In this document: piece after piece, positions 3,309 through 16,536 of the stretch
Layout: every line of letters starts with the position of its first letter
Position numbering within the stretch: the first letter of the stretch is position 1
Source of the DNA: an uncultured Anaerolineae bacterium
Lineage (GTDB): Bacteria > Chloroflexota > Anaerolineae > Fen-1058
Assembly: GCA_964353405.1 (NCBI GenBank)
Contig: CAYGWJ010000121.1
Span: 2,421 to 66,420 of the forward strand
Direction of reading: 5' to 3'
DNA: 64,000 nt
Translations under genes and position numbers: made by a program
Notes under the pieces: generated by a model
Seen by the model: the letters and a program-made list of their open reading frames with translations, nothing else
The model's database searches: none
What the model was told of the DNA's origin: nothing

Positions 3309-4028
3309 TTACTTTTGCGCCGGATGGCGCAGGCGCCCCTCGGCGGGCCCGGGCGGGACCAGCCGCTCGCTGGACTTTTCGCCAATCTCCGCAAAAGCGA
3401 CCTGAAGGTGCGGGAACACCAGCCACGCCGAGGCCCAGCCGAACGCCCCGCCCGTGATGGTGCGAAGCACCCAGGTGCTTTCACGCGGCACGCCGCCGGG
3501 GAACAGGCCCGGCACGATATAACTGACCAGCTGGCTACCGCCGTCCAGCGCCATCGGCAGGATGCCGATAAGGATATAGATCCAAAACGAAATAGGCCTG
3601 GCCCGTGAGCGAACCCATCCGAACGCCAGACCGCTCAGCAGCAATGTGCCATAGATCGCCAGGTCACGCTGGCATAGCGCCACTTTGTAGCCAACCTGCT
3701 CGTTGCCGTTGAACGGGCTGGGCCAGGGATAGAGCGGCAAGTTGTCCTGGCCCACTCGTTCTACCAGCTCCGGGAGCGAGTAGACCGCTTTGTCCCCGAA
3801 CAAAAAGTATGACCGCTGCGGCAGCTCGTGGCACAAGGCGCGATACGTTGAGTAAATGATTTGCGCCGCAAAGGGATGGCCCGCCTTTTCCAGCACCGGA
3901 GCCAGGAACGGCAGGCCGATATACACCGCCAGTGCGGCATTGATAACCGCCAACCAGTGCCTGGACAGCCACACCGAAAGACGATCCGCCGCCGCAGTCA
4001 CGCGGCTCGATCCGTTAATAGGCGGCAA
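3309..4028 (-). CDS. DUF2085 family membrane protein
   Basis: Multi-TM protein with a CHELPQRSYF motif, a variant of the CHQxPERSF motif of DUF2085. Confidence 0.55.
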   Translation of the reverse strand: MPPINGSSRVTAAADRLSVWLSRHWLAVINAALAVYIGLPFLAPVLEKAGHPFAAQIIYSTYRALCHELPQRSYFLFGDKAVYSLPELVERVGQDNLPLYPWPSPFNGNEQVGYKVALCQRDLAIYGTLLLSGLAFGWVRSRARPISFWIYILIGILPMALDGGSQLVSYIVPGLFPGGVPRESTWVLRTITGGAFGWASAWLVFPHLQVAFAEIGEKSSERLVPPGPAEGRLRHPAQK

Positions 4029-4254
4029 GTTGCTCTCCCAACGCGCGCCTCACATCGGCGCGCGTGATGGGCGCGCACAACACCTCGTGCCCATCCACCT
4101 CTATGACCGGGATGCGATAGCGATACTGCTCGAACAGCGCCGCATCAGCCGTGATGTCAGCCGATTGCCACGACACACCCACTTCCAAGAGCCAGCTCTC
4201 CGCCTCTTGGCACAGATGACAGCCCGGCCTGGTGTAAAGTACAATGTGCCTCAC
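4015..4254 (-). CDS. Glutaredoxin-like small redox protein (CxxC thioredoxin fold)
   Basis: The sequence VRHIVLYTRPGCHLCQEAESWLLE...YRIPVIEVDG fits the glutaredoxin/NrdH-like fold. The likely GTG start at 4254 overlaps the ccdA stop (GTGA), suggesting translational coupling. The ORF-track ATG at 4326 lies inside ccdA. Confidence 0.55.
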   Translation of the reverse strand: MRHIVLYTRPGCHLCQEAESWLLEVGVSWQSADITADAALFEQYRYRIPVIEVDGHEVLCAPITRADVRRALGEQLAAY

Positions 4255-5096
4255 AGAGACGCAACCTGGTTGACCGCGCGGCCGCCAAGATAGCCTATGT
4301 ACGCCGGGACGAGCGGCAGGACGCACGGCGAGAGGAACGACAGCAATCCCGCCAGGAACGCGACGAAAAACGTCGGCGTGATGGACGCGCCGCCCGTGGA
4401 CACATCCAGGAACAAGCCTCGACTAAGCGCCCACCGGCTAAAGGCCTGCAGCGAAGGCGCCCATGACGGAATCGTCAGTGTCCAGTTTGCGCCGAACCAT
4501 TCGCCCACTTGCGGCACGACGCGGGGCAGCGCATCCACGAGGAGCAACAGGCCGACGATGATCAGCAGCACCGCTGTGATCGTTTTGACCATGGGCATGT
4601 AGCGGCGCATCCGGCGCAGGAGCGCCGTCGCGCGATCCACTGCCAGACCTGTCAGTAGAAAGGGGATGCCCAGGCCAAGCGAATAGCCAACGAGCAGGAA
4701 CACTCCCCGCCCCACCGTCTGCTCGTTCAGCCCTAGCGTCAAGATCGCGCCGAGCGTCGGGCCAACGCAAGGCGTCCATCCGGCGGAAAAGAACACGCCC
4801 ATCAAGAACGATGAGACATAGCCCAGGTCGCGTCCGCTCGTACCTTGATAGCGCGTGTCATATTCCAGGAACGGGAGGTTGAGCACGCCCGCCGTCGCCA
4901 ATCCAAAGATCACAACGACGACGCCGCCGAGGAGGGCAAGCCAACTGCGCAAGTCGTACAACAGTTGACCGACCGCCGTCACCGCCGCACCCAGTGCGAC
5001 AAACACCGCCGAAAAGCCCAGCACGAACGCGACGGCGTGAGTGAAAGTGGCAAAGCGGGCCGTTGCCGGCGTTCGCGCTTGACCCGAGACCGTCAT
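4251..5096 (-). CDS. ccdA: Cytochrome c biogenesis thiol-disulfide transporter CcdA (DsbD transmembrane-domain family)
   Basis: 281 aa polytopic membrane protein containing ...FSAGWTPCVGPTLGAIL..., typical of CcdA. Confidence 0.8.
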   Translation of the reverse strand: MTVSGQARTPATARFATFTHAVAFVLGFSAVFVALGAAVTAVGQLLYDLRSWLALLGGVVVVIFGLATAGVLNLPFLEYDTRYQGTSGRDLGYVSSFLMGVFFSAGWTPCVGPTLGAILTLGLNEQTVGRGVFLLVGYSLGLGIPFLLTGLAVDRATALLRRMRRYMPMVKTITAVLLIIVGLLLLVDALPRVVPQVGEWFGANWTLTIPSWAPSLQAFSRWALSRGLFLDVSTGGASITPTFFVAFLAGLLSFLSPCVLPLVPAYIGYLGGRAVNQVASL

Positions 5097-5260
5097 CTCT
5101 CGTTATCCTTCTTGACCAGCGACTCGAGCGCCTCCAAGTCCTTCTCCAGGTTGCGCTGGCGCTGGCTCATGGTGAGAATGTAAAGGAACGTGCCTATCCA
5201 GAACACGCCGTAAGCGACCACCAAAAAGATGGCGTTCTTAAAGCCCATCAAGTCTGACAT
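5093..5260 (-). CDS. ccmD: Haem exporter protein CcmD (small single-TM protein)
   Basis: The sequence MSDLMGFKNAIFLVVAYGVFWIGTFLYIL... is a short single-TM protein positioned directly after ccmC. An AGGAGG Shine-Dalgarno lies upstream of the ATG at 5260. Confidence 0.7.
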   Translation of the reverse strand: MSDLMGFKNAIFLVVAYGVFWIGTFLYILTMSQRQRNLEKDLEALESLVKKDNER

Positions 5261-5326
5261 AGATTCCTCCTGACAAGTCACAGGTCGCAGGTCGCAGGTC
5301 ACATCGCCCGCGGCACACTCTACGGT

Positions 5327-6082
5327 CTATGCGACAAGTTCTTGCTGCAACCGCGCGACACGATCCGCCGTGTGTTCCAGTCGGATGCGCTGGCGCAGCA
5401 ACGTGATATAGACGACGGTGAACGCGATGACGCAAAACGTGAGCGTCATGCCCATCTTGGCCGAGCCAAGCCCGGTCTCGAACTGCATCTTGCCCTGTGC
5501 CGCGCTGCTGGCGGCTAACAGCGCCGGGTGAATCGTCCGCAGGAAAAAGACTGAGGCAAACGTCAGTGGGACGGTGACAAAGCTGACGATGCCATACACG
5601 GCCGAAAAACGCGCGCGCCGCTGCGGGTCGTCCATCGCGCCGCGCAACATGAGATAGGCCAGGTACACCAACCAGGTGATCGCCACCGTCGTCAGCCGCG
5701 CATCCCACGTCCACCAGGTGTTCCACACGGGCCGCGCCCATAGGCTGCCTGTCATCGCGCCCATCGTCAGGAACAGCGCACCCAATTCCACGGACGACAT
5801 GCCCACAATGTCCCACTTGCGGTCATTCGTCCGCAGGTACATCACCGAAGCGACCAGCGTGACAAAGAACGCCAAAAAGCCCACCCAGTCCACCGCCACG
5901 TGGAAGTAGAAAATGCGCTGGACTTCTTTCATCGTCAGTTCGGTCGGCGCCCACAGGAACACCAACACGAGCGACGTGACCACCAGCACGGCGCTGGCAA
6001 CGGCCAGTACGGTTCCGGTTGTATCCTTTGCCTGTTTCATGCTCCTCCTTCCTTCGACGTCACTCCTCCACGACGTACTCAA
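5327..6082 (-). CDS. ccmC: Haem exporter protein CcmC
   Basis: Carries the tryptophan-rich WWD motif (VWNTWWTWDARLTT), has 6 TM helices, and lies adjacent to ccmB and ccmA. Confidence 0.85.
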   Translation of the reverse strand: MSTSWRSDVEGRRSMKQAKDTTGTVLAVASAVLVVTSLVLVFLWAPTELTMKEVQRIFYFHVAVDWVGFLAFFVTLVASVMYLRTNDRKWDIVGMSSVELGALFLTMGAMTGSLWARPVWNTWWTWDARLTTVAITWLVYLAYLMLRGAMDDPQRRARFSAVYGIVSFVTVPLTFASVFFLRTIHPALLAASSAAQGKMQFETGLGSAKMGMTLTFCVIAFTVVYITLLRQRIRLEHTADRVARLQQELVA

Positions 6083-6734
6083 ACACCATGAACGACACTG
6101 CCACGAGAATCACGTCAAACACGATCAGCAAATTGAGCCACTGCTGCCACTCGGACACCGGCAGGCCCATCATCGCGCCGGACGTGGCCTTGACGGCGGC
6201 AATCAGTTCCGGCATCGCCACCGGGAACAGCAAAATGGGCAGCATCACCTCCCGAGCGCGCGTGTTGACCGCCATCGAGCTGAGCAGCGTGCCCACACCC
6301 GCAAAACCGAGCGTCCCCAGCACGACGACGAGGATCACCCAAGGCTGAACGAGCGGCACATTGAAAAACACTACAAACAGTGGCAGGACGATCACTTCGA
6401 CGATGAGCATGAACAACGCATTGCCCAACGCCTTGCCGAAAAAGATGGCGCTGCGATCCACCGGCGTCAATAGTAAACCATCCAGGCAGCCCTTGTCCAA
6501 CTCGACCGACAGCGAGCGATTCAGACCCAGCATTCCGGCAAAGACGATCGTCACCCATAGCGCGCCCGGCGTGGCTGTCTCGATAATGTTGCGCTCCGTC
6601 AGCTCCAACGCAAAGTTGAAAACGATGATGACCAGAATGCTGAACACGCCCATCGAGCTGAGCATCTCGCGCGTGCGGAGTTCAGCCGCGATGTCTTTGG
6701 CAATGATGGCGGCGACTTGTCTCAGATACGTCAT
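6060..6734 (-). CDS. ccmB: Haem exporter protein CcmB
   Basis: 224 aa, 6-TM ABC permease-like protein lying between ccmA and ccmC. Confidence 0.8.
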   Translation of the reverse strand: MTYLRQVAAIIAKDIAAELRTREMLSSMGVFSILVIIVFNFALELTERNIIETATPGALWVTIVFAGMLGLNRSLSVELDKGCLDGLLLTPVDRSAIFFGKALGNALFMLIVEVIVLPLFVVFFNVPLVQPWVILVVVLGTLGFAGVGTLLSSMAVNTRAREVMLPILLFPVAMPELIAAVKATSGAMMGLPVSEWQQWLNLLIVFDVILVAVSFMVFEYVVEE

Positions 6735-7426
6735 AGAGTGTGCTGACGATACGCTTGCAGAAACGCCGCGGTGTTCAACTCGCTTCGATTGGCCTCAAAC
6801 ACCACCCGGCCCTTGGCCAGAATCACCACGCGGTCGGCCACGGCCAGGCCACGCTCCAGGTCGTGCGTCGTCATGACGACGGTGCGCCCTTCGGTGCCGA
6901 CGCTGGACATGACCGCTTCCAGCCGTGCGGCGGCATCCTGGTCGAGACCCGTATACGGCTCGTCGAGCAGCATCAGTGACGGACGATGGAGCACAGCCCG
7001 TGCGATGGCGAGCCGTTGCTGCATTCCGCGCGATAAAGTCCGCACCGGGTCGCGGCGGCGCTGCGCCAGCCCGACCATCTCCAGCACCTCCGTGATGCGA
7101 GCGTCGAGGCCGGCCACGTCATACATGCGTCCATAAAAGCGCAAGTTCTCTTCGGCGGAAAGGTCGCCATACAGCAGCGTCTGATGGCTGACCAGGCCGA
7201 TGCTCCGGCGCGCATCCGCCGCGCCCTTGGGCAGCTCGTGCCCGGCGATCTTGACGTGACCCAATGTCGGGCGCGAGAGCGTCGCCAGGATGCGCAACAA
7301 CGTCGTCTTGCCCGCGCCGTTCGGACCGACGAGCGTGACGAACTGCCCCTCCGGCACGGACAGGTTCACACCGCGCAGCGCCGTGGTCGGTCCAAAGGAT
7401 TTGACGAGACTATTGACTTTTATCAC
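6731..7426 (-). CDS. ccmA: Cytochrome c biogenesis ABC transporter ATP-binding protein CcmA
   Basis: Walker A motif GPNGAGKTTLLRIL, ABC signature LSRGMQQRLAIA, and Walker B motif LMLLDEP. Confidence 0.85.
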   Translation of the reverse strand: MIKVNSLVKSFGPTTALRGVNLSVPEGQFVTLVGPNGAGKTTLLRILATLSRPTLGHVKIAGHELPKGAADARRSIGLVSHQTLLYGDLSAEENLRFYGRMYDVAGLDARITEVLEMVGLAQRRRDPVRTLSRGMQQRLAIARAVLHRPSLMLLDEPYTGLDQDAAARLEAVMSSVGTEGRTVVMTTHDLERGLAVADRVVILAKGRVVFEANRSELNTAAFLQAYRQHTL

Positions 7427-7489
7427 CAGCCGGTATCCATCAGACGAATGACCAGGGACAAGGGGCCTATACTCGTCCGTCGTCTTGCG

Positions 7490-9433
7490 TCATTCGGTCA
7501 TCAACTCTTGCAGTTCCGCCTTGAGTGTGGCACGCTGCTGGCGGTATTCCTTGTCCTGGATGCGGCCCGCTTCAAAGTCATCATCCAATTGGGCAATGGC
7601 GTCCAGCAATTCATCTTGTTCTGCTTCCACATCTTGTACTTCTTCTTCGACCCCTTCCGCTTGCCGACGTTGCCTCAACCAGACAAAGGCGACAATCGCC
7701 ACAGCCACCAGCAACAAAGCCGCGGCAACGATGAGAATAGGCGAAGCTGTCTGGCTGGTAGGGGCCGTCGTGCCAGACGCAGAAGCGCTCGGCGCGCCAC
7801 TGAGTTGAAGCGCAAGGCTCGCTCCGGCAGCCAGGTCGCTGCCGACAAAATTGACCATGTTGCCGCCCTGTGTGGGGCGCGTGCCTGACTCGGTCAACTG
7901 CGGGCTGGTCAGCTTGGCGCCACCTTCGGGCACCAAGACGTTGATACTTTTCACCGGATACGCCATGGGCACTTGCAGGTCAAGCTTTTTGGCATCGTAA
8001 GGCAAATCATACGAAACGAGAACCTGCGTCGTGCCGGCGCCGGGCGCAACCGCTTCCGTGTCCGCAAAGCCGTTATCCAGCGACTTGTAGCGTCCACCTA
8101 GTTCGCCATCCATAAAGCGGAGGCCTGTCGCGCCGGCAGGCAGTTGGAAGCGCGCTGAAAGCCCATCCGAGCCGATGTAGGCGCGGTCGCCTGTGTTGGA
8201 CACGACGTACACCACTCCAACGGTCGTGCTGCCCGGCGACACAAAATCAAAGAACATGTGCATCTGTGCGATGCTGATAGTGGCGGCATCCGCCGTCGTC
8301 TCGTAAACCGTGATCGGCGCCGTCAGCGTCAGGCCGCCGTGAGCAAACGACAGCGCCTCACTCGTATAGATCGCCTTCAGGTATTCAGCCTGGAGGCCAT
8401 ACATGATCGGCGTCGAGGCGTCGAGCTTGTCGAACACAAACTGGCCCTTTGCGTCTGCGGCAAGCGTACGCGTGAACATGAGGCTTGAGCCATCGGGCGA
8501 AAGCGCGTACAACGTCACCGGCAAATTGCCTGGCGGCTTGCCGCCCGGCGTGCCATTCACAAACGAACCCATGATAGTCGCTTCGCCTTTGGGCGCGGCG
8601 ATCTTGACCAAGTCCATCGAAAGCGAACGAACGTAATCGGCGGCAGCCTGCCGATCGGCCTGACTCACACCGGCCAAGCCCGGCATCGCACCCTTACCAT
8701 TCGCGATGGCGCGATGTACGGCATCGACGGCATCGAGATCAGACTGCGATTTGCTTACCATCTTGCTCGCATCCGAGATATCCGGCGTGGCCGTGTTGTC
8801 GGACTTGCCCGTCGCGCCGTGGCATGAGGCACATTTGTCCGTGTAAACGGCTTTGCCCCGGTCCAGTTGATCTTGCGGAATGGACAGCGTGTAGAGATAC
8901 GCCACCACATCCCAACGATCCTCCGCCGTGAGACTGGTGAAAGGCGGCATTCCCCTTTGGAGCCGGCCGTTCGAAATCACATTGAACCAATCGGTCGGTT
9001 TGACCGTGCGCACAAAAGCCACATCGGCCAGGTCTGGAAACTTGCCTCCCATGTTTGCGACGATCTGCTGGCTCTGAGGGCCATCGCCCTTGCCCGCTGC
9101 GCCGTGGCAGGCCAGGCAACGCGCTTCATATACGCCCTGCCCTCTTTGCGCGGCAGGCTGCCGTTGAGGGAGTGCCACCGGCACAGGTGCGCCGGCTGTC
9201 GGGATATCCACAGGCGGCAGCGTGCCCACGGGCTGTGCAGCGGCAGAGGTCGGTTGTGCTGCCCGCGTCGCGGCCGCGCCCGGCGGCGGAACGATCGGCG
9301 TGACGGGGCCTTGAGGCAACTCGCCGGCGGTGTTGCAGGACGAGAGAACAAAGAGCGCCACAAGAGCGAATACAACCAGGGTCAAACGCAGATTTTTCAA
9401 CGAGTTGCCTCCACGGTCAACGCTGCGCCGCAC
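7490..9433 (-). CDS. Membrane-anchored dihaem cytochrome c lipoprotein
   Basis: Built from two class-I cytochrome c domains, a ~350-aa beta-rich domain, one TM helix and a cytoplasmic coiled tail. The N-terminus has a lipobox (LSSC). Two CXXCH motifs (CLACHG, CASCHG) are each followed by a Met-containing GMPPF or GAMPGL segment. A TM helix (ILIVAAALLLVAVAIVAFVWL) precedes a tail reading LDDDFEAGRIQDKEYRQQRATL. Confidence 0.7.
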   Translation of the reverse strand: MRRSVDRGGNSLKNLRLTLVVFALVALFVLSSCNTAGELPQGPVTPIVPPPGAAATRAAQPTSAAAQPVGTLPPVDIPTAGAPVPVALPQRQPAAQRGQGVYEARCLACHGAAGKGDGPQSQQIVANMGGKFPDLADVAFVRTVKPTDWFNVISNGRLQRGMPPFTSLTAEDRWDVVAYLYTLSIPQDQLDRGKAVYTDKCASCHGATGKSDNTATPDISDASKMVSKSQSDLDAVDAVHRAIANGKGAMPGLAGVSQADRQAAADYVRSLSMDLVKIAAPKGEATIMGSFVNGTPGGKPPGNLPVTLYALSPDGSSLMFTRTLAADAKGQFVFDKLDASTPIMYGLQAEYLKAIYTSEALSFAHGGLTLTAPITVYETTADAATISIAQMHMFFDFVSPGSTTVGVVYVVSNTGDRAYIGSDGLSARFQLPAGATGLRFMDGELGGRYKSLDNGFADTEAVAPGAGTTQVLVSYDLPYDAKKLDLQVPMAYPVKSINVLVPEGGAKLTSPQLTESGTRPTQGGNMVNFVGSDLAAGASLALQLSGAPSASASGTTAPTSQTASPILIVAAALLLVAVAIVAFVWLRQRRQAEGVEEEVQDVEAEQDELLDAIAQLDDDFEAGRIQDKEYRQQRATLKAELQELMTE

Positions 9434-9933
9434 CTGGCGCAGAATCGGTCAGATGGGTCAATGGGCCGACCACACTTGGGACATTGTGGATTACGGAACG
9501 CGGATTGCGGCGCACCGCTGGCCGATTGACGACGAGCGCGAACAGCGACTTCGATGTCGTCTTCTTTCGGCGCGGACGGCGCAGTCTTGGCCTTGCGCCT
9601 TGCCTGCACGGCCGCTTCGATTTCATCTGCGACCGCCGCTGGCGTTTTGCGGTCATCGCCCAGCGCATCCAACTCTTTCAGAATCTCGACACCGCGCGCC
9701 GCGTACTTTTCCCGCGTCGCACGATAATCCACTTCACGCAGCTTGCCGGTCTGAAAATCAAAGTCCAGGTCACGCAGCGCAGTGAGCACCGTATTGCGTT
9801 CAGCCTGCAGTTTCTCTCGCAAAGATTCTTCCGACACGGCGATCACGCGCGACCTGGCAGTGAACGGCGCGGCGACATAGACCGCCACAATCACCACCAT
9901 CGTCAAACCAATCAATGCTACGACGATTTCCAT
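9397..9933 (-). CDS. Membrane protein with an N-terminal TM, a CcmH-like juxtamembrane motif and a C-terminal zinc ribbon
   Basis: TM helix MEIVVALIGLTMVVIVAVYVAA, then the tail DLDFDFQTGKLREVDYRATREKY, and a zinc ribbon CPKCGRPIDPSDRFCARCG at the C-terminus. It is embedded in the ccm operon. Confidence 0.5.
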   Translation of the reverse strand: MEIVVALIGLTMVVIVAVYVAAPFTARSRVIAVSEESLREKLQAERNTVLTALRDLDFDFQTGKLREVDYRATREKYAARGVEILKELDALGDDRKTPAAVADEIEAAVQARRKAKTAPSAPKEDDIEVAVRARRQSASGAPQSAFRNPQCPKCGRPIDPSDRFCARCGAALTVEATR

Positions 9934-9940
9934 AGAGCCT

Positions 9941-10510
9941 CTACTTTGCCAGCGCCTTGTCCAGTTCGGCCACCAGTTCGGCTTCGCTCATCGGCGCGAT
10001 CTTGAACAATACAATGTTGCCCTGGCGATCCACCAAAAAAGATTCCGGCACGCCCTGGATGTGATACTTGGGCGAAATCTTGGTGCCCAAGTCAGGGCCA
10101 TTCAGGTACGTTACGCCAAACTTTTTGAGATAGTCGAGTGCTGCCGGTTCGGTGTCCACATAGTCAATACCCAGGAACACAACGCCCTTGTCGCGATATT
10201 GCCGCCAGACCTTTTCCAGTGCGGGCTGTTCTTCAGCACACGGCACGCACCAACTGGCCCAAAAGTTGATAAACACCACCTTGCCGCGCAAGACAGACAA
10301 CTTGACCTCCGGCTGGCCCGAACCGCCATCGTAGCCAGGATACACCTTGAGCGTAAAATCGGGCGCGATGCCGGACTTGGGCTGCGAGGCATTCCGCGCG
10401 CGCAGTTGGAGTGCCAGCACAATCACCAGGCCGACGACGCCCAACAACGCAACGGCGCGCCAGATCGAGCTGACTGTCTTTCTAGATGTAATCACGGCTG
10501 TTCCACTCAT
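9941..10510 (-). CDS. ccmG: Thiol:disulfide interchange protein CcmG/ResA/TlpA family (thioredoxin-like)
   Basis: WASWCVPCAEE active site, an N-terminal membrane anchor, and the TlpA-like fold sequence. Confidence 0.8.
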   Translation of the reverse strand: MSGTAVITSRKTVSSIWRAVALLGVVGLVIVLALQLRARNASQPKSGIAPDFTLKVYPGYDGGSGQPEVKLSVLRGKVVFINFWASWCVPCAEEQPALEKVWRQYRDKGVVFLGIDYVDTEPAALDYLKKFGVTYLNGPDLGTKISPKYHIQGVPESFLVDRQGNIVLFKIAPMSEAELVAELDKALAK

Positions 10511-10980
10511 CGCATTTCCTCAAGCTCGCGTTCCAATCGCTGGCGGTATTCATCCGCCGAATCGGGCACGGCCGGCGTTTCTACTTTCACCCTGGAAGGT
10601 TGAGCCGTCATGCGCCGCAAGACGACGACCAGAATCGCCACGCCCGCGATCAGCCCCACGATGGGCAAAATCCACACCAGCCCGGTAAAGCCTCCGCGCG
10701 GAGGCTCTTGCAGCACGCGGTCGCCATAGGTGGCCTGAAAGTAATTGATGATCTGCTGCGGCGTTTCACCGGTCGAGAGTTTTTGCCGGATCAGGTCACG
10801 CCACTGCGAGCACGCCTGCGTCTCGCACACGTCCAGCGGCACGTTCTCGCACACCGGGCAGTTGAGCTTTTTGGCGACCGCGTTCACCTGGTCATCCGTC
10901 ACCTGCCGGCCCTGCGCGGCGGCGATGCCGGCGACGAGCAAACTCGTCAACACGGCTGCCAGCAAAACGAACCCCCACAC
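10507..10980 (-). CDS. ccmH: Cytochrome c-type biogenesis protein CcmH (CycL/NrfF family)
   Basis: Signal peptide, an LNCPVCENVPLDVCETQAC motif corresponding to the CcmH LRCxxC thiol motif, a C-terminal TM helix and a tail reading ADEYRQRLERELEEM. Confidence 0.7.
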   Translation of the reverse strand: MWGFVLLAAVLTSLLVAGIAAAQGRQVTDDQVNAVAKKLNCPVCENVPLDVCETQACSQWRDLIRQKLSTGETPQQIINYFQATYGDRVLQEPPRGGFTGLVWILPIVGLIAGVAILVVVLRRMTAQPSRVKVETPAVPDSADEYRQRLERELEEMR

Positions 10981-11092
10981 TGTTTTGCGTGATGCGTGCC
11001 ATGTGCTGCGTGCTACGTGATGCGCGCTTCTCGTGTGACCTGGGCTCTGCGACTTGCATCCTGCCTCTTGCCTCTTGCATCTTGCTACCTCG

Positions 11093-13216
11093 TTATGCCT
11101 GTGCGGCTTTTAACGCTCTGCGCTCCACACTCAACGCTTTGCGCTCTTCGGCGGCATCCGGCCATGCGGCTACCAGCGTGCCCAGGATAAACACCAGCCC
11201 ACCCAGCCACAGCCAGTTGACCAACGGATTGATGAACACCTTGAACGTCGCCAGCGAACCGTCACTTTCCCAACCGCCCAACAGAACGTACAGGTCTTCT
11301 TTCATCGAGCTGAGCAGCGCGGGCGGCGTCATCCGCTCTCCGTTTGTGTATTGCTCCTGGTAGGGACGCATCGTCGTCAGGAGCTTGCCATTCTGCGAAA
11401 CCTCCACGCGCGCCGAGACAATGATCTTGTCCGCCTGGCCCGAAGGCACCAACTCTAACTGCCGAAACGTGATCTGGTACCCGCCGATGGACAGCGACCG
11501 GCCGACGGACAGCGCCTGTTGCGTCTCTTGCTGATACAGATGCGTCCCAAGGATGCCCACACCCATCAGTACGATGCCGGCATGCACCAGGTAACCTCCA
11601 TAGCGCCGCCGATTGCGCCCGATGAGATTCCACAGCGCAACCGGCCAGCTTTCACCCGTGGACTTGTGCCGCGCGCGCACGCCGCGCGCGTACTCTGCCA
11701 CGATGATCACGCCCGCATAGATCACCAGCGCAAAGCCCAACAAAGCCGCCCAGTTGTGAATGCCCAGCACATAGATGATGACCACGGCCACCAGCGTGGC
11801 CGGGCCGGGGAGGTAAAGCGCGCTCTTGCCCAGCGCCTGAGGCGAAGCCGCTCGCCACGAAATGAGCGGCGCAATCCCCATCAGCAGCACAAGCGGAACG
11901 AGCAATGGACCCACCACGCTCTGATAGTACGGCGCGCCCACCGTGATCTTGTTGTCGGTGAACAACTCGGAGAAAATCGGAAAGTACGTGCCGATGGCAA
12001 CCGCCAGATTGACGATGAGGAACAAGGCATTCTGCGCGATAAAGGCCGCCTCGCGCGAAAGCAGACTATCGAGCTTGTTCTCGCTCTTGAGATCGTCCAG
12101 CCGAGCCAGCAGCAAACCGATCGAGCCGACCAGCATCACGCCCGTGAAGGCGAGGAACGGCACGCCGATGGACGAGCGGGCGAACGAGTGCACCGACGAG
12201 ATGACACCCGTGCGGGTGATGAACGTGCCGAGGATAACCTGCGCGAAGGTGAGAATGATGAGGAACATGTTCCACGTCTTGAACATCCCGCGCTTTTCCT
12301 GGATCATCACCGAATGCAAAAACGCCGTGCCGGAAATCCACGGCATGAGCGCGGCATTTTCGACCGCGTCCCAGCCCCAATAGCCGCCCCAGCCCAACAC
12401 GTCATACGCCCAACGCATTCCCAGCAAAAGACCGATGCCGAGAAACAACCAGGCCATCAATGTCCAGCGGCGCGTGGTGCGAATCCAGGCATCATTCGTC
12501 TTGCCGGTGATGAGCGCCGCCATTGCAAACGAATACGGGATCGTGAATCCGACAAATCCGAGGTACAGGAAGGGCGGGTGCGCGATCATGCCAGGATGAC
12601 GCAAGAGTGGAGCAAGTCCTTGTCCATCCAGAGGCGTATACGGCAGTGAGCCAAGCGGCGCGAACAAAGTCTGTGCGATACCCGAAAAGCCGATGCTGCT
12701 CAAAGTGCTGAACAAGCCGCTGGCGCCCAAGACGGCGCCGACAATGTCGCCCGTTGGCGTTTGCCACAACTTGGCAAAGGGATTCGCAAACAACACGACC
12801 AACGCGATAAAGAACGCTTGCGTGATTTCGGCGACGGCGATGACGTAAGCCATCAGGTCGCGGTTCTTGTCCCACTTGCGCGCCATCACACCCGCGACGA
12901 ACATTGACATCAACCACGACCAGAACAACAGCGATCCATTTTGTCCGCCCCATAAAGCCGTGATCTTTAATATCGCGGGCGTAGAAATACTGGTCACATG
13001 CGCGGTGTACTCGAGGCGGAAATTATTGGTGAGATTAGAGTAGATGATCAACAGTGCGGACAGCGTCAACAATGGAGTGATCACCAGCACTGCGTTGCGT
13101 GCGCTCTTGACCCAATCTTCCCGATGGCTCCGCGCGCCGTGTATCGCCGCCGCGATGGCGTAAACGCTTGCCACCAAAGCCAACAAGAGCGAAATCAATC
13201 CAATGTCGGTTATCAT
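11093..13216 (-). CDS. ccmF: Cytochrome c haem lyase subunit CcmF
   Basis: 707 aa polytopic protein with the WWD motif WGGYWGWDAVENAALMPW and conserved His residues. Confidence 0.9.
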   Translation of the reverse strand: MITDIGLISLLLALVASVYAIAAAIHGARSHREDWVKSARNAVLVITPLLTLSALLIIYSNLTNNFRLEYTAHVTSISTPAILKITALWGGQNGSLLFWSWLMSMFVAGVMARKWDKNRDLMAYVIAVAEITQAFFIALVVLFANPFAKLWQTPTGDIVGAVLGASGLFSTLSSIGFSGIAQTLFAPLGSLPYTPLDGQGLAPLLRHPGMIAHPPFLYLGFVGFTIPYSFAMAALITGKTNDAWIRTTRRWTLMAWLFLGIGLLLGMRWAYDVLGWGGYWGWDAVENAALMPWISGTAFLHSVMIQEKRGMFKTWNMFLIILTFAQVILGTFITRTGVISSVHSFARSSIGVPFLAFTGVMLVGSIGLLLARLDDLKSENKLDSLLSREAAFIAQNALFLIVNLAVAIGTYFPIFSELFTDNKITVGAPYYQSVVGPLLVPLVLLMGIAPLISWRAASPQALGKSALYLPGPATLVAVVIIYVLGIHNWAALLGFALVIYAGVIIVAEYARGVRARHKSTGESWPVALWNLIGRNRRRYGGYLVHAGIVLMGVGILGTHLYQQETQQALSVGRSLSIGGYQITFRQLELVPSGQADKIIVSARVEVSQNGKLLTTMRPYQEQYTNGERMTPPALLSSMKEDLYVLLGGWESDGSLATFKVFINPLVNWLWLGGLVFILGTLVAAWPDAAEERKALSVERRALKAAQA

Positions 13217-13298
13217 TCACAGCCTCCACACAAACAAAAACGTAAAACGCCAAGAGCTGACCCTTGCGTTTTACGCTCCACATCGTACGGTTCTACAC

Positions 13299-13733
13299 TT
13301 ATTTGCTGGCCGGTGTCGGAGTGGGGAGTTGGTCTTCGTAACGAGTAGGACACTTGAGCAGCAAGTTGCTGGCGACAAAGGTCCCATCAGAGTTGAGCTT
13401 GCCCTCGGCAATCGCCTGGGCCTCGTGCTGCAACAGGTCCGGCTTGGGGCCGGTGTAGAGAATCTTGAGCGAGTCCACCTTGACCGTTGAGTTCAGCTCT
13501 TCGTGAGTGTCCACGATATTGAAGGACAGTCTGGAAGCCTGCGGGTTGTAGGCAATCGTGTCGCCCATCACAAAGCCGGATACGCGCAAGCTGCGGCCCG
13601 TCATGGCCTGCCCCTTGTCGCGTACCTCTTTGACTGTGAGGTAATACTGGGCCGAGCTGGAAATACTTGACACAATCAAATAGACTACCGCGGCTGCCAC
13701 CACAATTCCACCGATCCAAAACTTGGCGCGCAT
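13299..13733 (-). CDS. ccmE: Cytochrome c haem chaperone CcmE, Cys variant (CxxxY instead of HxxxY)
   Basis: The likely start is MRAKFW at 13733, preceded by an AGGAGG Shine-Dalgarno. The protein has a single N-terminal TM and an OB-fold sequence. The haem-binding motif reads LLLKCPTRYEDQ. Confidence 0.8.
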   Translation of the reverse strand: MRAKFWIGGIVVAAAVVYLIVSSISSSAQYYLTVKEVRDKGQAMTGRSLRVSGFVMGDTIAYNPQASRLSFNIVDTHEELNSTVKVDSLKILYTGPKPDLLQHEAQAIAEGKLNSDGTFVASNLLLKCPTRYEDQLPTPTPASK

Positions 13734-13862
13734 AAGCCTCCTGCTAATGTGACCCATCACTTGCCGCAAGTTGCGGAAATCACATTGACTATACCACATC
13801 GGCAAACCTGTGTCAAAATGCTATTGTGACGGTTGACATCCCGGCCAATCTGCCTAGTTCAA

Positions 13863-14241: not shown

Positions 14242-16536
14242 ATGAGACGCTATGCACTACCAGTGGGGATCGCCCTGTGCGTCGTCGGCCTGCTCGTCGT
14301 CCTGGCGGCCTGCGCCACGCCCACGCCCCCCCCTCCGCAAATCGTCAAAGAGACGGTCGTCGTCACCAAGGTCGTCGAGCCGACCAAGGCGCCGGCCGTC
14401 GCCGCAACGCTCGACCTGACAGCAAGCAAAAAGTCGCCCACGCTGCCATTCCTGGCTGACTGGCAGAAAGCGGGCCACTCTGATCCCACCGCAGAAGCCT
14501 TCAACCACTGGCCAACGGGTGGCGTGCCCACTGACTGCGCCAAGTGCCATACCTCTGAGGGATACCGCGAATTCGTCACCACCGGCAAGATCGAGAAGCC
14601 GATCCAGAACAGCGGCAGCTTGATCGACTGTGTCGCCTGCCACAACAGCGGCACGATGGATAAGACCAGTGTAAAGTTCCCCTCTGGCGCGACACTCAAG
14701 AACCTTGGCGCCGAAGCCCGCTGTATGGAATGCCACCAGGGCCGCGAGTCCACAGTCAGCGTGAACAACGTCATCTCCAACACCTTCAAGCTCAAGGATG
14801 CGGACGATGACACGGTTGTGAAACCGCTCGTGACAACGGACGCCGCTGGCAAAACCGTCACCACGACCTTCGGCTTCCGCAACATCCACTATTTCGCGGC
14901 TGCAGCCACGCAATATGGCACCCTGGCCAAGGGCGGTTACGAATACAAAGGCCAGTCGTATGACAGCAAGTTCCAACATCCTGAGCCGTATGACACCTGT
15001 GTGGGCTGCCACAACCAGCACACGTTGGAGTTGAAGCTGAAGGAATGCGCCACCTGCCATACTGGCGTCACCAAAGTCGAGGACATCGCCAAGATCCGCA
15101 TGAACGGCTCGCTAATGGACTATGACGGCGACGGCAATGCGAAGGAAGGGATCGCCGAGGAGTTGGCGGGCCTGCAGGAAAAACTGCTCGCCGCCATCCA
15201 GGCGTATGCCAAGGAAGTCGGCAAGGCCGACATCGCCTACAGCTCAACGGCTTACCCGTACTTTTTGGCGGACAAGAATGGCAACGGCAAGGCCGATGCT
15301 GATGAGACGGGAGTGTACACCGCCTGGACCCCGCGTCTGCTGAAGGCTACCTACAACTACCAGGTCGCCAGCAAGGATCCTGGCAAGCTGGCGCACAACG
15401 CCAAGTACGTCATCCAGTTGATGCACGATTCGATCGCGGATCTGAACACCAAGCTGGCCAAGCCGGTGGACATCGCGAAGGCAGTACGCAATGATGCCGG
15501 CCACTTTGATGGCACCGCTATGGCGTTCCGCGATTGGGATGCGGAGGGCGAGGTTCCGGCGGGCTGCGCCAAGTGCCACAGCGCCAAGGGCCTGCCTGAA
15601 TTCCTGGAGAGCGGCGGCACAGTCGCTGTGACGGCCGCCGGCTCGATCGTGACGACCGGCGTCGGCCCACAGGAAACCGCCAACGGTTTCGCCTGCACCA
15701 CCTGCCACAGCGACCTGACCAAGTTCACGGTGCGCCCGGTGGTGAATGTGCCGTTCCCCAGCGGCAAGAGCCTCACCTTCAGCAAGGAGAAGGATGACAA
15801 GGGCGCGCTCAAGCCAGTGGCTGCCAACCTGTGCCTGGAATGCCACCAGGGCCGCCAGTCCACGGCCGCCGTCAATACCAGGATCAAGGGCATTGACGAA
15901 GACAAAGTGGATGCCAAGGCCGCCTTCGCCAATGTGCACTACTTTGCCGCGGGCGCCACGCTCTTCGGCGATGCTGCGCAGGTCGCCTACCAGTATGATG
16001 GCAAAAAGTACGCCGGCCAGAATGCGCATGCGCCTGGCTTCGACACCTGCACCGGCTGCCACAGCACGCACGAACTCGGGGTCAAGATGGACAAGTGCGT
16101 GACCTGCCATGCCGGCGTCAAGACGCCCCAAGACATCCGCATGAACGCCAAGGATTTCGATGGCGACAAGGATGTGAAAGAAGGCATCTCGGCCGAGGTG
16201 ATGGCGCTAGAAGACAAGCTGTACGCGGCGATCATTGACTACAGCAAGACACTCACCAAGACAGCGATCGCCTACAACTCGGGCGCCAATCCGTACTTCT
16301 TCGTTGACACGAATGGCGATGGCAAGGCCGATGCGAAGGAGGCCGTGAGCGCCAATCGCTGGGCGGATTGGACGCCGCGCCTTCTCAAGGCCGCCTACAA
16401 CTACCAGTACGTCCAGAAGGATCCGGGCGCCTTTGCGCACAACCCCAAGTACGCCATCCAGATCCTCTACGATGCGCTGGAGGATCTCGGCAAGAAGGTC
16501 AAGGTGAACATGACGGGCCTGGCGCGGCCAGAGTAA
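14242..16536 (+). CDS. Decahaem c-type cytochrome lipoprotein with internal two-fold duplication
   Basis: Lipobox LAAC. Ten CXXCH motifs: CAKCH, CVACH, CMECH, CVGCH, CATCH, CAKCH, CTTCH, CLECH, CTGCH and CVTCH. The two halves align (...NGNGKADADETGVYTAWTPRLLKATYNYQ... against ...NGDGKADAKEAVSANRWADWTPRLLKAAYNYQ...). Confidence 0.85.
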   Translation: MRRYALPVGIALCVVGLLVVLAACATPTPPPPQIVKETVVVTKVVEPTKAPAVAATLDLTASKKSPTLPFLADWQKAGHSDPTAEAFNHWPTGGVPTDCAKCHTSEGYREFVTTGKIEKPIQNSGSLIDCVACHNSGTMDKTSVKFPSGATLKNLGAEARCMECHQGRESTVSVNNVISNTFKLKDADDDTVVKPLVTTDAAGKTVTTTFGFRNIHYFAAAATQYGTLAKGGYEYKGQSYDSKFQHPEPYDTCVGCHNQHTLELKLKECATCHTGVTKVEDIAKIRMNGSLMDYDGDGNAKEGIAEELAGLQEKLLAAIQAYAKEVGKADIAYSSTAYPYFLADKNGNGKADADETGVYTAWTPRLLKATYNYQVASKDPGKLAHNAKYVIQLMHDSIADLNTKLAKPVDIAKAVRNDAGHFDGTAMAFRDWDAEGEVPAGCAKCHSAKGLPEFLESGGTVAVTAAGSIVTTGVGPQETANGFACTTCHSDLTKFTVRPVVNVPFPSGKSLTFSKEKDDKGALKPVAANLCLECHQGRQSTAAVNTRIKGIDEDKVDAKAAFANVHYFAAGATLFGDAAQVAYQYDGKKYAGQNAHAPGFDTCTGCHSTHELGVKMDKCVTCHAGVKTPQDIRMNAKDFDGDKDVKEGISAEVMALEDKLYAAIIDYSKTLTKTAIAYNSGANPYFFVDTNGDGKADAKEAVSANRWADWTPRLLKAAYNYQYVQKDPGAFAHNPKYAIQILYDALEDLGKKVKVNMTGLARPE

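Follow-up and report, generated by a model that had tools for sequence, protein, structure and literature searches.

Two proteins encoded within a System I* cytochrome c maturation operon of an Anaerolineae bacterium appear to carry the N-terminal membrane module of CcmI

The window analysed here, a stretch of 64,000 nucleotides from an uncultured Anaerolineae bacterium (Chloroflexota; Fen-1058; NCBI GenBank assembly GCA_964353405.1, contig CAYGWJ010000121.1, positions 2,421 to 66,420 of the forward strand), contains on its minus strand a cytochrome c maturation (ccm) operon with two additional genes between ccmG and ccmA, whose products we call Small (178 amino acids, 9397-9933) and Big (an open reading frame (ORF) of 647 amino acids, 7490-9433). 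As judged from sequence comparison, both proteins carry the N-terminal module of CcmI/CycH, i.e. transmembrane (TM) helix 1 and the cytoplasmic helical hairpin behind it, and we consider it probable (roughly 0.68) that together they are the local CcmI equivalent of the CcmFH haem-ligation complex, duplicated and rearranged into two proteins, a substitution that would extend across Anaerolineae and to some Bacillaceae. CcmI as described has two TM helices joined by a cytoplasmic region and a periplasmic tetratricopeptide repeat (TPR) domain (PMC3884852); CcmF and CcmH are recovered together with it on purification, it both binds and chaperones apocytochrome c (PMC3884852; PMC3601427), and its exact role is still called unclear (PMC8975832).

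The original prediction for this locus proposed that Big, Small and CcmH share a juxtamembrane tail that acts as a common docking module, and the three peptide strings that it quoted are present as written. For Big and Small the similarity held up against shuffled sequences: a Smith-Waterman alignment of their cytoplasmic segments scored 82 compared with 27.8 +/- 5.2 for the shuffles (z = 10.3), and none of 20,000 shuffles reached 82. When the two family alignments were compared, hhalign returned probabilities of 97.5-97.9% (E 5e-13 to 8e-12) over 48-53 cytoplasmic columns, and column shuffling of one profile collapsed the score from 70.9 to 21.4 +/- 2.0 (maximum 29.3), so the signal does not reflect coiled-coil composition; residue and column shuffles together rule out a compositional or coiled-coil artefact. 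Each protein has a single TM helix in the N-out/C-in orientation followed by a CcmI/CycH-type helix-turn-helix hairpin, and the AlphaFold2 (AF2) models of both show the TM helix, a helix, a tight turn at the conserved glycine and a second helix. The hairpin of Big (residues 602-646; 7496-7630, minus strand; with LLDAIAQLDDDFEAGRIQDKEYRQQRATLKAEL) is modelled as helices 602-621 and 627-646 at a mean predicted local distance difference test (pLDDT) score of 89, whilst that of Small (residues 38-90; 9664-9822, minus strand; with LRDLDFDFQTGKLREVDY) lies in a region with pLDDT of 94-97 across residues 40-90. The tail profile found no relative in the PDB, the best match (E 0.15) being a designed TM protein. 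An exhaustive representative search with the same profile gave 3,720 matches, and the 150 listed, judged by length and match position, were members or fragments of the Big family with no other architectures among them.

The inclusion of CcmH in this shared tail did not survive the same comparisons. Its C-terminal tail (DEYRQRLERELEEMR; 10510-10554, minus strand) is conserved as D[DE]Y..R[LMF]EEELKK in all Anaerolineae CcmH, but hhalign probabilities were only 0.1-3.6% against the Big and Small hairpins and 0.7% against canonical CcmI, the score fell below the column-shuffled baseline, and shuffle tests gave p values of ~0.06 against Big and ~0.49 against Small. A third copy of the module in CcmH is thereby ruled out. 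Similar short acidic amphipathic tails occur in four of five proteobacterial, one actinobacterial and two Bacillaceae CcmH proteins read (e.g. LSAEEERRVSELL and ELKVQEELKNWL); the presence of analogous tails on CcmH generally marks the tail as a feature of CcmH itself, by its sequence a short cytoplasmic helix.

What Big and Small do share, a homologous juxtamembrane cytoplasmic module, is not new and corresponds to TM1 and the loop of CcmI/CycH. The CcmI N-terminal domain family TIGR03142 matched the isolated Big tail with 29.4 bits (E 8e-7; cutoff 29.3) over profile positions 3-73 of 118, which we read as TM1 plus the loop, ending before TM2. It was also the most-matched family for 40 diverse Big tails (14/40, best E 1.7e-8) and for 23 Small N-termini (5/23 at E up to 1, best E 0.0016). 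An independent CcmI profile was built from the N-termini of five annotated CcmI proteins of plasmid ccm operons (Cupriavidus, Rhizobium, Dinoroseobacter, Psychrobacter and Martelella), which read TM1, P-L-L-R, L-x-E-L-D-x-D-x-x-x-G-x-L/I...R-x-E-L/I-x-R-R-L. This profile matched the Big tails with an hhalign probability of 96.5% (E 8e-10, 50 loop columns) and Small with 79% (E 1.6e-5), the latter match including the TM helix and the P-F/L-x-x-R stretch, whilst an alignment of full-length canonical CcmI matched Big in the tail region only (92.4%). When the hidden Markov model (HMM) of the five N-termini was run against all window ORFs of at least 50 amino acids in six frames, Big ranked first (E 8.7e-5) and Small second (E 0.024). 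In the reverse direction the Big-tail HMM aligned with residues 7-89 in four of these CcmI proteins (Cupriavidus, Psychrobacter, Martelella and Dinoroseobacter). The link of Small to CcmI is the weaker of the two and is supported transitively through Big (97.9%). On a Pseudonocardia plasmid (locus L088, 10317-11105) an actinobacterial TPR protein encoded beside ccmH opens directly with the hairpin motif ALQDILELEAQVAGGEIDEERARRMRRHY and, as annotated, has no TM1, which reflects either an error in the called start or yet another way of placing the module.

In order to follow the pair beyond the window we used a species-level scan (one genome per species), in which 390 stretches, nearly all from Anaerolineae, encode a Small relative; 80 loci were kept, and their gene content was recorded by phmmer with the window's own proteins. 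The row CcmE-F-H-G-Small-Big-CcmA-B-C recurred with gene order and strand unchanged in 80/80 loci, with no exceptions where the contig was long enough, and the cultured Anaerolinea thermolimosa has an identical gene row. The synteny of both extra genes with ccm genes, by which the original prediction was to be judged, is therefore found in other genomes, and co-location with ccmF/ccmH extends to loci L001, L083, L087 and L093. L083, a metagenomic relative, shares the flanks too: a multihaem cytochrome is encoded upstream, and genes for CcdA, DUF2085 and a response regulator follow downstream. The protein collection contained 196 relatives of Big and 655 (clusters) of Small. At one locus (L002, GCA_041300525.1, 10001-11260) a Big homologue without cytochrome domains lies directly upstream of CcmA-B-C and is flanked by transposase genes, CcmE-F-H-G and Small not being nearby, and this operon has apparently been split.

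The pair also occurs in the Bacillaceae. A Cytobacillus firmus plasmid, the best CcmF match amongst the collected plasmids at 38% identity, has the row CcmE-F-H, a 116-amino acid protein, a 310-amino acid protein and CcmA-B-C. Both are labelled 'hypothetical protein': the smaller has a TM helix and LSELEYDYQMGKIPEKAY and no zinc ribbon, and the larger has a signal peptide, a beta domain, a TM helix and LLQEMVQLEKDYEMKLISDKTY and no cytochrome domain. A Halobacillus chromosome has a matching row, the Bacillaceae pair measuring 116-117 and 310-319 amino acids. The family of the larger Bacillaceae protein (36 members, labelled 'hypothetical' or 'uncharacterized' where named, except for one UniRef 'DUF3324') matched Big with an hhalign probability of 98.9% (E 1.4e-17) over 243 columns that run from the second beta-sandwich through the TM helix to the hairpin.

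Closer to the window, its own clade includes proteins that are 63-68% identical to Big, lack precisely both cytochrome domains and occupy the same operon slot. Amongst 82 Anaerolineae Big ORFs a single CxxCH was found in 68, two in 10 and none in 4, the protein being dihaem in the window, monohaem in the majority of orthologues and haem-free in a few. Most Anaerolineales (loci L004-L082) keep the second cytochrome-like domain with its CxxCH (only 'NCADC' remains) and distal Met lost. Given the cytochrome-free close relatives, the loss of the second haem site and the Bacillaceae proteins without cytochrome domain or zinc ribbon, the conserved unit, as read from the sequences, is the pair itself, [TM + hairpin] and [beta-sandwich + TM + hairpin]. 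Cytochrome c domains and zinc ribbon were added in particular lineages and are dispensable across lineages, and recruitment of a dedicated dihaem cytochrome, as proposed in the original prediction, is on this distribution an improbable core function.

The architecture first described for Big was borne out, the ORF encoding a lipobox, two class I cytochrome c domains, a large beta region, one TM helix and the tail. The cytochrome domains (PF13442, 98.7 bits in two stretches) have the CxxCH and distal Met by which class I c-type cytochromes are recognised. Domain 1 (8885-9154, minus strand; PF13442/PF00034 and alignment) has CLACH with its Met in GMPPF and is kept throughout Anaerolineae; domain 2 (8618-8875, minus strand) has CASCH with its Met in GAMPG and is intact here, its haem motif being lost in most Anaerolineales. 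Behind them lie two extracytoplasmic beta-sandwiches (7796-8587, minus strand), the first transthyretin/CarboxypepD_reg-like and the second conserved across phyla. The Big profile matched solved structures in the PDB in the cytochrome c domains only, and a fold search with the beta region returned generic beta-sandwich matches only (OST1, the M1 aminopeptidase N-domain, transthyretin-like and CnaB). The single TM helix (residues 565-592; 7658-7741, minus strand; AF2 helix at model residues 284-311, and sequence) is followed by RQRRQ, which is consistent with the positive-inside rule, and the protein ends 57 residues past this C-terminal helix in an acidic tail. A TTG at 9400 overlaps the stop codon of Small as TTGA and is probably the true start of Big, giving a 636-amino acid protein that matches the NCBI protein; the overlap implies that the two genes are translationally coupled.

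Small likewise has the N-terminal TM helix and C-terminal zinc ribbon originally assigned to it. The TM helix (residues 3-22; 9868-9927, minus strand) is followed by P-F/L-x-x-R as in CcmI TM1, according to alignment and to hhalign against the canonical CcmI N-terminus. The predicted ribbon (residues 149-172; 9418-9489, minus strand) has four cysteines as CPKC...CARC, scores 31.5 bits against PF13240 (cutoff 25) and keeps its CxxC...CxxC in 81/82 Anaerolineae orthologues. Between hairpin and ribbon (residues ~92-148; 9490-9660, minus strand) there are two conserved [DE][DE]IEAA[VI]xARR repeats, each predicted to be helical with modest confidence (pLDDT mostly 53-74), and family searches with this repeat region found no match. 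An anti-sigma factor was considered for Small and rejected: a TM helix first and a ribbon last is the wrong domain order, no sigma factor gene is adjacent in the loci whose gene tables were examined, and the ribbon is missing in Bacillaceae.

Of the CcmI properties that can be read from sequence and locus, Big and Small show the N-terminal module and the operon context and lack the second TM helix and the TPR domain, and they are therefore filed as a rearranged variant which probably works like CcmI. Several observations weigh against equating them with CcmI. The architecture is unlike that of CcmI, with no TM2 after the loop in either protein, no TPR and the opposite domain order in Big. Neither TPR nor Ig_CycH was detected in Big or Small at E up to 1, whilst the Cupriavidus and Dinoroseobacter CcmI match PF23914 at 69-73 bits, and the Ig_CycH region gave an hhalign probability of 0.1% against Big, so that the beta-sandwich is not detectably related to TPR/Ig_CycH. 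Whole-protein Big scored 23.0 bits against TIGR03142, under the cutoff of 29.3, and the window's own Small gave no match to this family. Anaerolineae strongly conserve the first cytochrome c domain throughout, and in this lineage it is perhaps more than accessory. A role linked to CcmF/H would follow from gene context and one module of ~70 residues, the equivalence is drawn from ccm loci and not from whole genomes, and a chaperone role for the beta-sandwich would be one of analogy, its fold matches being generic.

On the CcmI-equivalent reading, both TM-hairpin modules would anchor Small and Big to CcmF/CcmH in the membrane. Small amounts in essence to TM1 and the hairpin, to which two short helices and the zinc ribbon are appended on the cytoplasmic side, whilst Big has TM helix and hairpin at the C-terminal end of an extracytoplasmic region whose core is the beta-sandwich, in place of the TPR. 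The beta-sandwich might then hold or present apocytochromes at the haem site of CcmF, taking on what in CcmI is ascribed to the TPR domain. The translational coupling of the genes suggests that the two proteins may pair, possibly as a heterodimer, and the opposite mean net charges of the Big tail (-8.9) and the distal cytoplasmic part of Small (+3.9) are a weak hint in the same direction. A maturation factor with a haem domain depends on the machine for the maturation of that domain, which could, speculatively, act as a redox centre or feedback element. A bolder extension, which we think unlikely, is that the part of CcmI conserved between proteobacteria and these lineages is the TM helix and hairpin and not the TPR, that Anaerolineae and Bacillaceae System I* use it twice on coupled subunits which could form a cytoplasmic four-helix assembly under CcmF/H, and that the Anaerolineae machine in addition carries a c-type haem domain in need of its own maturation as a built-in substrate, redox centre or feedback sensor. 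Such a use of the module would suggest that the haem-ligation complex has a function on the cytoplasmic side which has gone unrecognised, e.g. coupling to haem supply or to CcmAB.

The cytochrome domains also invite a reading in which Big is mainly a redox component, its c-type haems passing electrons at the outer face of the membrane, for example to keep ferrous the haem that Cys-type CcmE carries or that is bound in CcmF, with the CcmI-like module as a tether near CcmF. Every full-length Anaerolineae locus in the census has one intact conserved class I cytochrome c domain, and the operon is of the Cys-type CcmE variant whose haem-release chemistry is unresolved (PMC3601427). We nevertheless regard this as distinctly improbable, given that cytochrome-free forms occur in close relatives and in Bacillaceae that also have a Cys-type CcmE (KCPSKY), that most orthologues show a decayed second haem site, and that the part conserved across phyla is the beta-sandwich and not the cytochrome. 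The docking proposal in its full form, in which a tail common to Big, Small and CcmH brings to the Ccm machinery both a zinc-ribbon factor and a dedicated dihaem cytochrome, the latter as its client or privileged substrate, is very improbable. It draws on a shared Big-Small tail that is real, on two genes always found inside the operon and on a first cytochrome domain kept across Anaerolineae, but the CcmH tail is unrelated to the module, orthologues without cytochrome domains hold the same operon slot, and the Bacillaceae homologues have neither cytochrome domain nor zinc ribbon. Since the tail is a known CcmI module, Big and Small look like machinery and not cargo, and they are more likely to be part of the apparatus than clients recruited to it.

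A regulatory or signalling device in place of a ligation-complex subunit, sensing cytochrome or haem status outside the cytoplasm and signalling through the hairpins and zinc ribbon with the CcmAB ATPase, haem supply or gene expression as its target, would make use of the conserved structured cytoplasmic elements on both proteins and of the acidic Big tail (-8.9) alongside a basic distal Small (+3.9). A Ccm-dependent haem domain could report Ccm output, and even in model organisms we know of no function for the cytoplasmic loop of CcmI. Domain searches, however, turned up nothing enzymatic or DNA-binding, Bacillaceae lack the zinc ribbon, and the homology is to a structural subunit that co-purifies with CcmFH (PMC3884852), which leaves signalling with a very slim chance of being the main role.

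The surrounding genes were assigned by Pfam and NCBIfam from their translations, and the ccm genes lie where they were originally placed, all on the minus strand and closely packed from 13805 down to 4015. CcmE (13299-13805; PF03100, 84.7 bits) is followed by the CcmF haem lyase (11093-13216; PF16327 185.5 bits, PF01578 113.6 bits, TIGR00353 419.5 bits), CcmH with a CPVC motif, one C-terminal TM helix and the short cytoplasmic tail (10507-10980; PF03918, 86.6 bits) and a CcmG/ResA-like thioredoxin-fold thiol-disulfide oxidoreductase (9941-10510; PF08534 64.9 bits, NF002854 ResA 88.4 bits). Downstream of Small (TM helix, CcmI-type hairpin, two IEAAVxARR helices and zinc ribbon) and Big (lipoprotein-type signal, two cytochrome c domains, two beta-sandwiches, TM helix and CcmI-type hairpin) come the CcmA ABC ATPase (6731-7426; TIGR01189, 149.4 bits, cutoff 131.6), CcmB (6060-6734; PF03379, 112 bits), CcmC (5327-6082; PF01578 97.7 bits, TIGR01191 108.9 bits) and a CcmD of the alternative family (5093-5302; TIGR04391, 37.7 bits, cutoff 24). 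The row closes with a CcdA thiol-reductant transporter (4251-5096; PF02683, 63.9 bits) and a glutaredoxin-like (DUF836) ORF at the operon end (4015-4326; PF05768, 58.4 bits). The description of the locus as otherwise canonical needs correcting on two counts, the CcmE being Cys-type and the CcdA circularly permuted. The translated CcmE has KCPTRY near its C-terminus, i.e. CxxxY in place of HxxxY at the haem-binding site, and because Cys replaces the haem-binding His the operon is of System I* and not canonical System I. The motif KCPT[KR]Y is found in CcmE of 67/68 Anaerolineae loci, and the Cytobacillus CcmE has KCPSKY. The CcmH proteins encoded beside the pair in Bacillaceae (L087 9895-10392; L093 6145-6641) read PGCTDS(M/R)TADYC (C-x8-C) where CxxC is usual, and the Halobacillus ccmH is called as two ORFs.

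Further observations concern the ends of the operon. A phmmer comparison with Thermus thermophilus CcdA (PDB 5VKV) aligned two stretches of the window CcdA in swapped order, residues 18-188 (TM2-TM6, WTPCVGP) with chain residues 40-201 and residues 244-273 (FLSPCVLPLVPAY, normally TM1) with chain residues 6-35, which places the first Cys-bearing helix at the C-terminus, behind a linker of ~50 residues. The CcdA of a Thermoflexales locus (L003) has an identical order of Cys motifs, and searching the literature for circular permutation in CcdA gave a single paper that mentions both, whose subject is a structure-determination method. As listed, the glutaredoxin-like ORF overlaps the 3' end of ccdA by 76 nucleotides and also the start of the DUF2085 gene; translation probably begins near 4258, beyond the stop codon of CcdA, and no gene is called at this position in the syntenic metagenomic locus L083. 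On the plus strand and divergent from ccmE, a 764-amino acid lipoprotein-type multihaem cytochrome (14242-16536) consists of two similar halves of ~330 amino acids with five CxxCH each, ten in total; in L083 the multihaem cytochrome is likewise divergent and upstream of ccmE.

The original prediction did not recognise the arrangement from described ccm operons, and we found no paper on the pair in the searchable literature; the pair thus appears to be undescribed, the module itself being already known from CcmI. Source databases label its members mostly 'hypothetical', 'c-type cytochrome', 'ribosomal protein L32', 'rubrerythrin' and the like, spurious zinc-ribbon names among them, with a single JGI label 'CcmI', and these mostly unlabelled or mislabelled proteins would gain names and a testable function. 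We see the finding as an annotation-level and mechanistic refinement of a known pathway and not as a new kind of system. CcmI is, to our knowledge, the least understood subunit of System I haem ligation, and we know of no role assigned to its cytoplasmic loop; the present comparison singles out the hairpin as a conserved element worth mutating, and Bacillaceae with System I on a plasmid or chromosome are candidate experimental hosts, if genetically tractable.

Set against known systems, Cys-type CcmE (System I*) has been reported from archaea, Desulfovibrio, Chloroflexi and Firmicutes (PMC3601427), and accounts of System I* stress the missing CcmH, CcmI and CcmD in archaea (PMC9084895). Other published accounts treat a TPR-type CcmI as merely raising yield, and none of the papers searched mentions paired TM-hairpin proteins. 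The variant is usually described by what it lacks, yet CcmI-related proteins are encoded in the System I* operons of both Anaerolineae and Bacillaceae. The resemblance of Big to Ribophorin I/OST1 and to the M1 aminopeptidase N-terminal domain (9-13% identity) is one of fold only, a common fold that assigns no function. In Escherichia coli CcmH is a natural CcmH-CcmI fusion, showing a physical coupling of the two functions and a CcmI part open to rearrangement between polypeptides (PMC3601427); there CcmH is followed by a TPR domain, whereas here CcmH is separate and its tail is not a CcmI module. The closest relative is proteobacterial CcmI/CycH (TIGR03142 with PF23914 TPR_CcmH_CycH and PF23892 Ig_CycH), which shares with the pair an N-out TM helix ending P-L/F-x-x-R, the cytoplasmic helix-turn-helix L-x-(E/D)-L-D-x-D-x-x-x-G-x-(L/I)...R-x-E-(L/I) and a gene inside the ccm operon beside ccmH/ccmG, and with Big a large extracytoplasmic domain on the same polypeptide. 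Unlike CcmI/CycH, the pair carries the module twice, on two proteins and with no TM2 after the loop, Big runs in the inverse order from signal peptide through extracytoplasmic domain and TM helix to hairpin, beta-sandwiches take the place of TPR repeats, and the pair has a zinc ribbon and one or two c-type haem domains besides.

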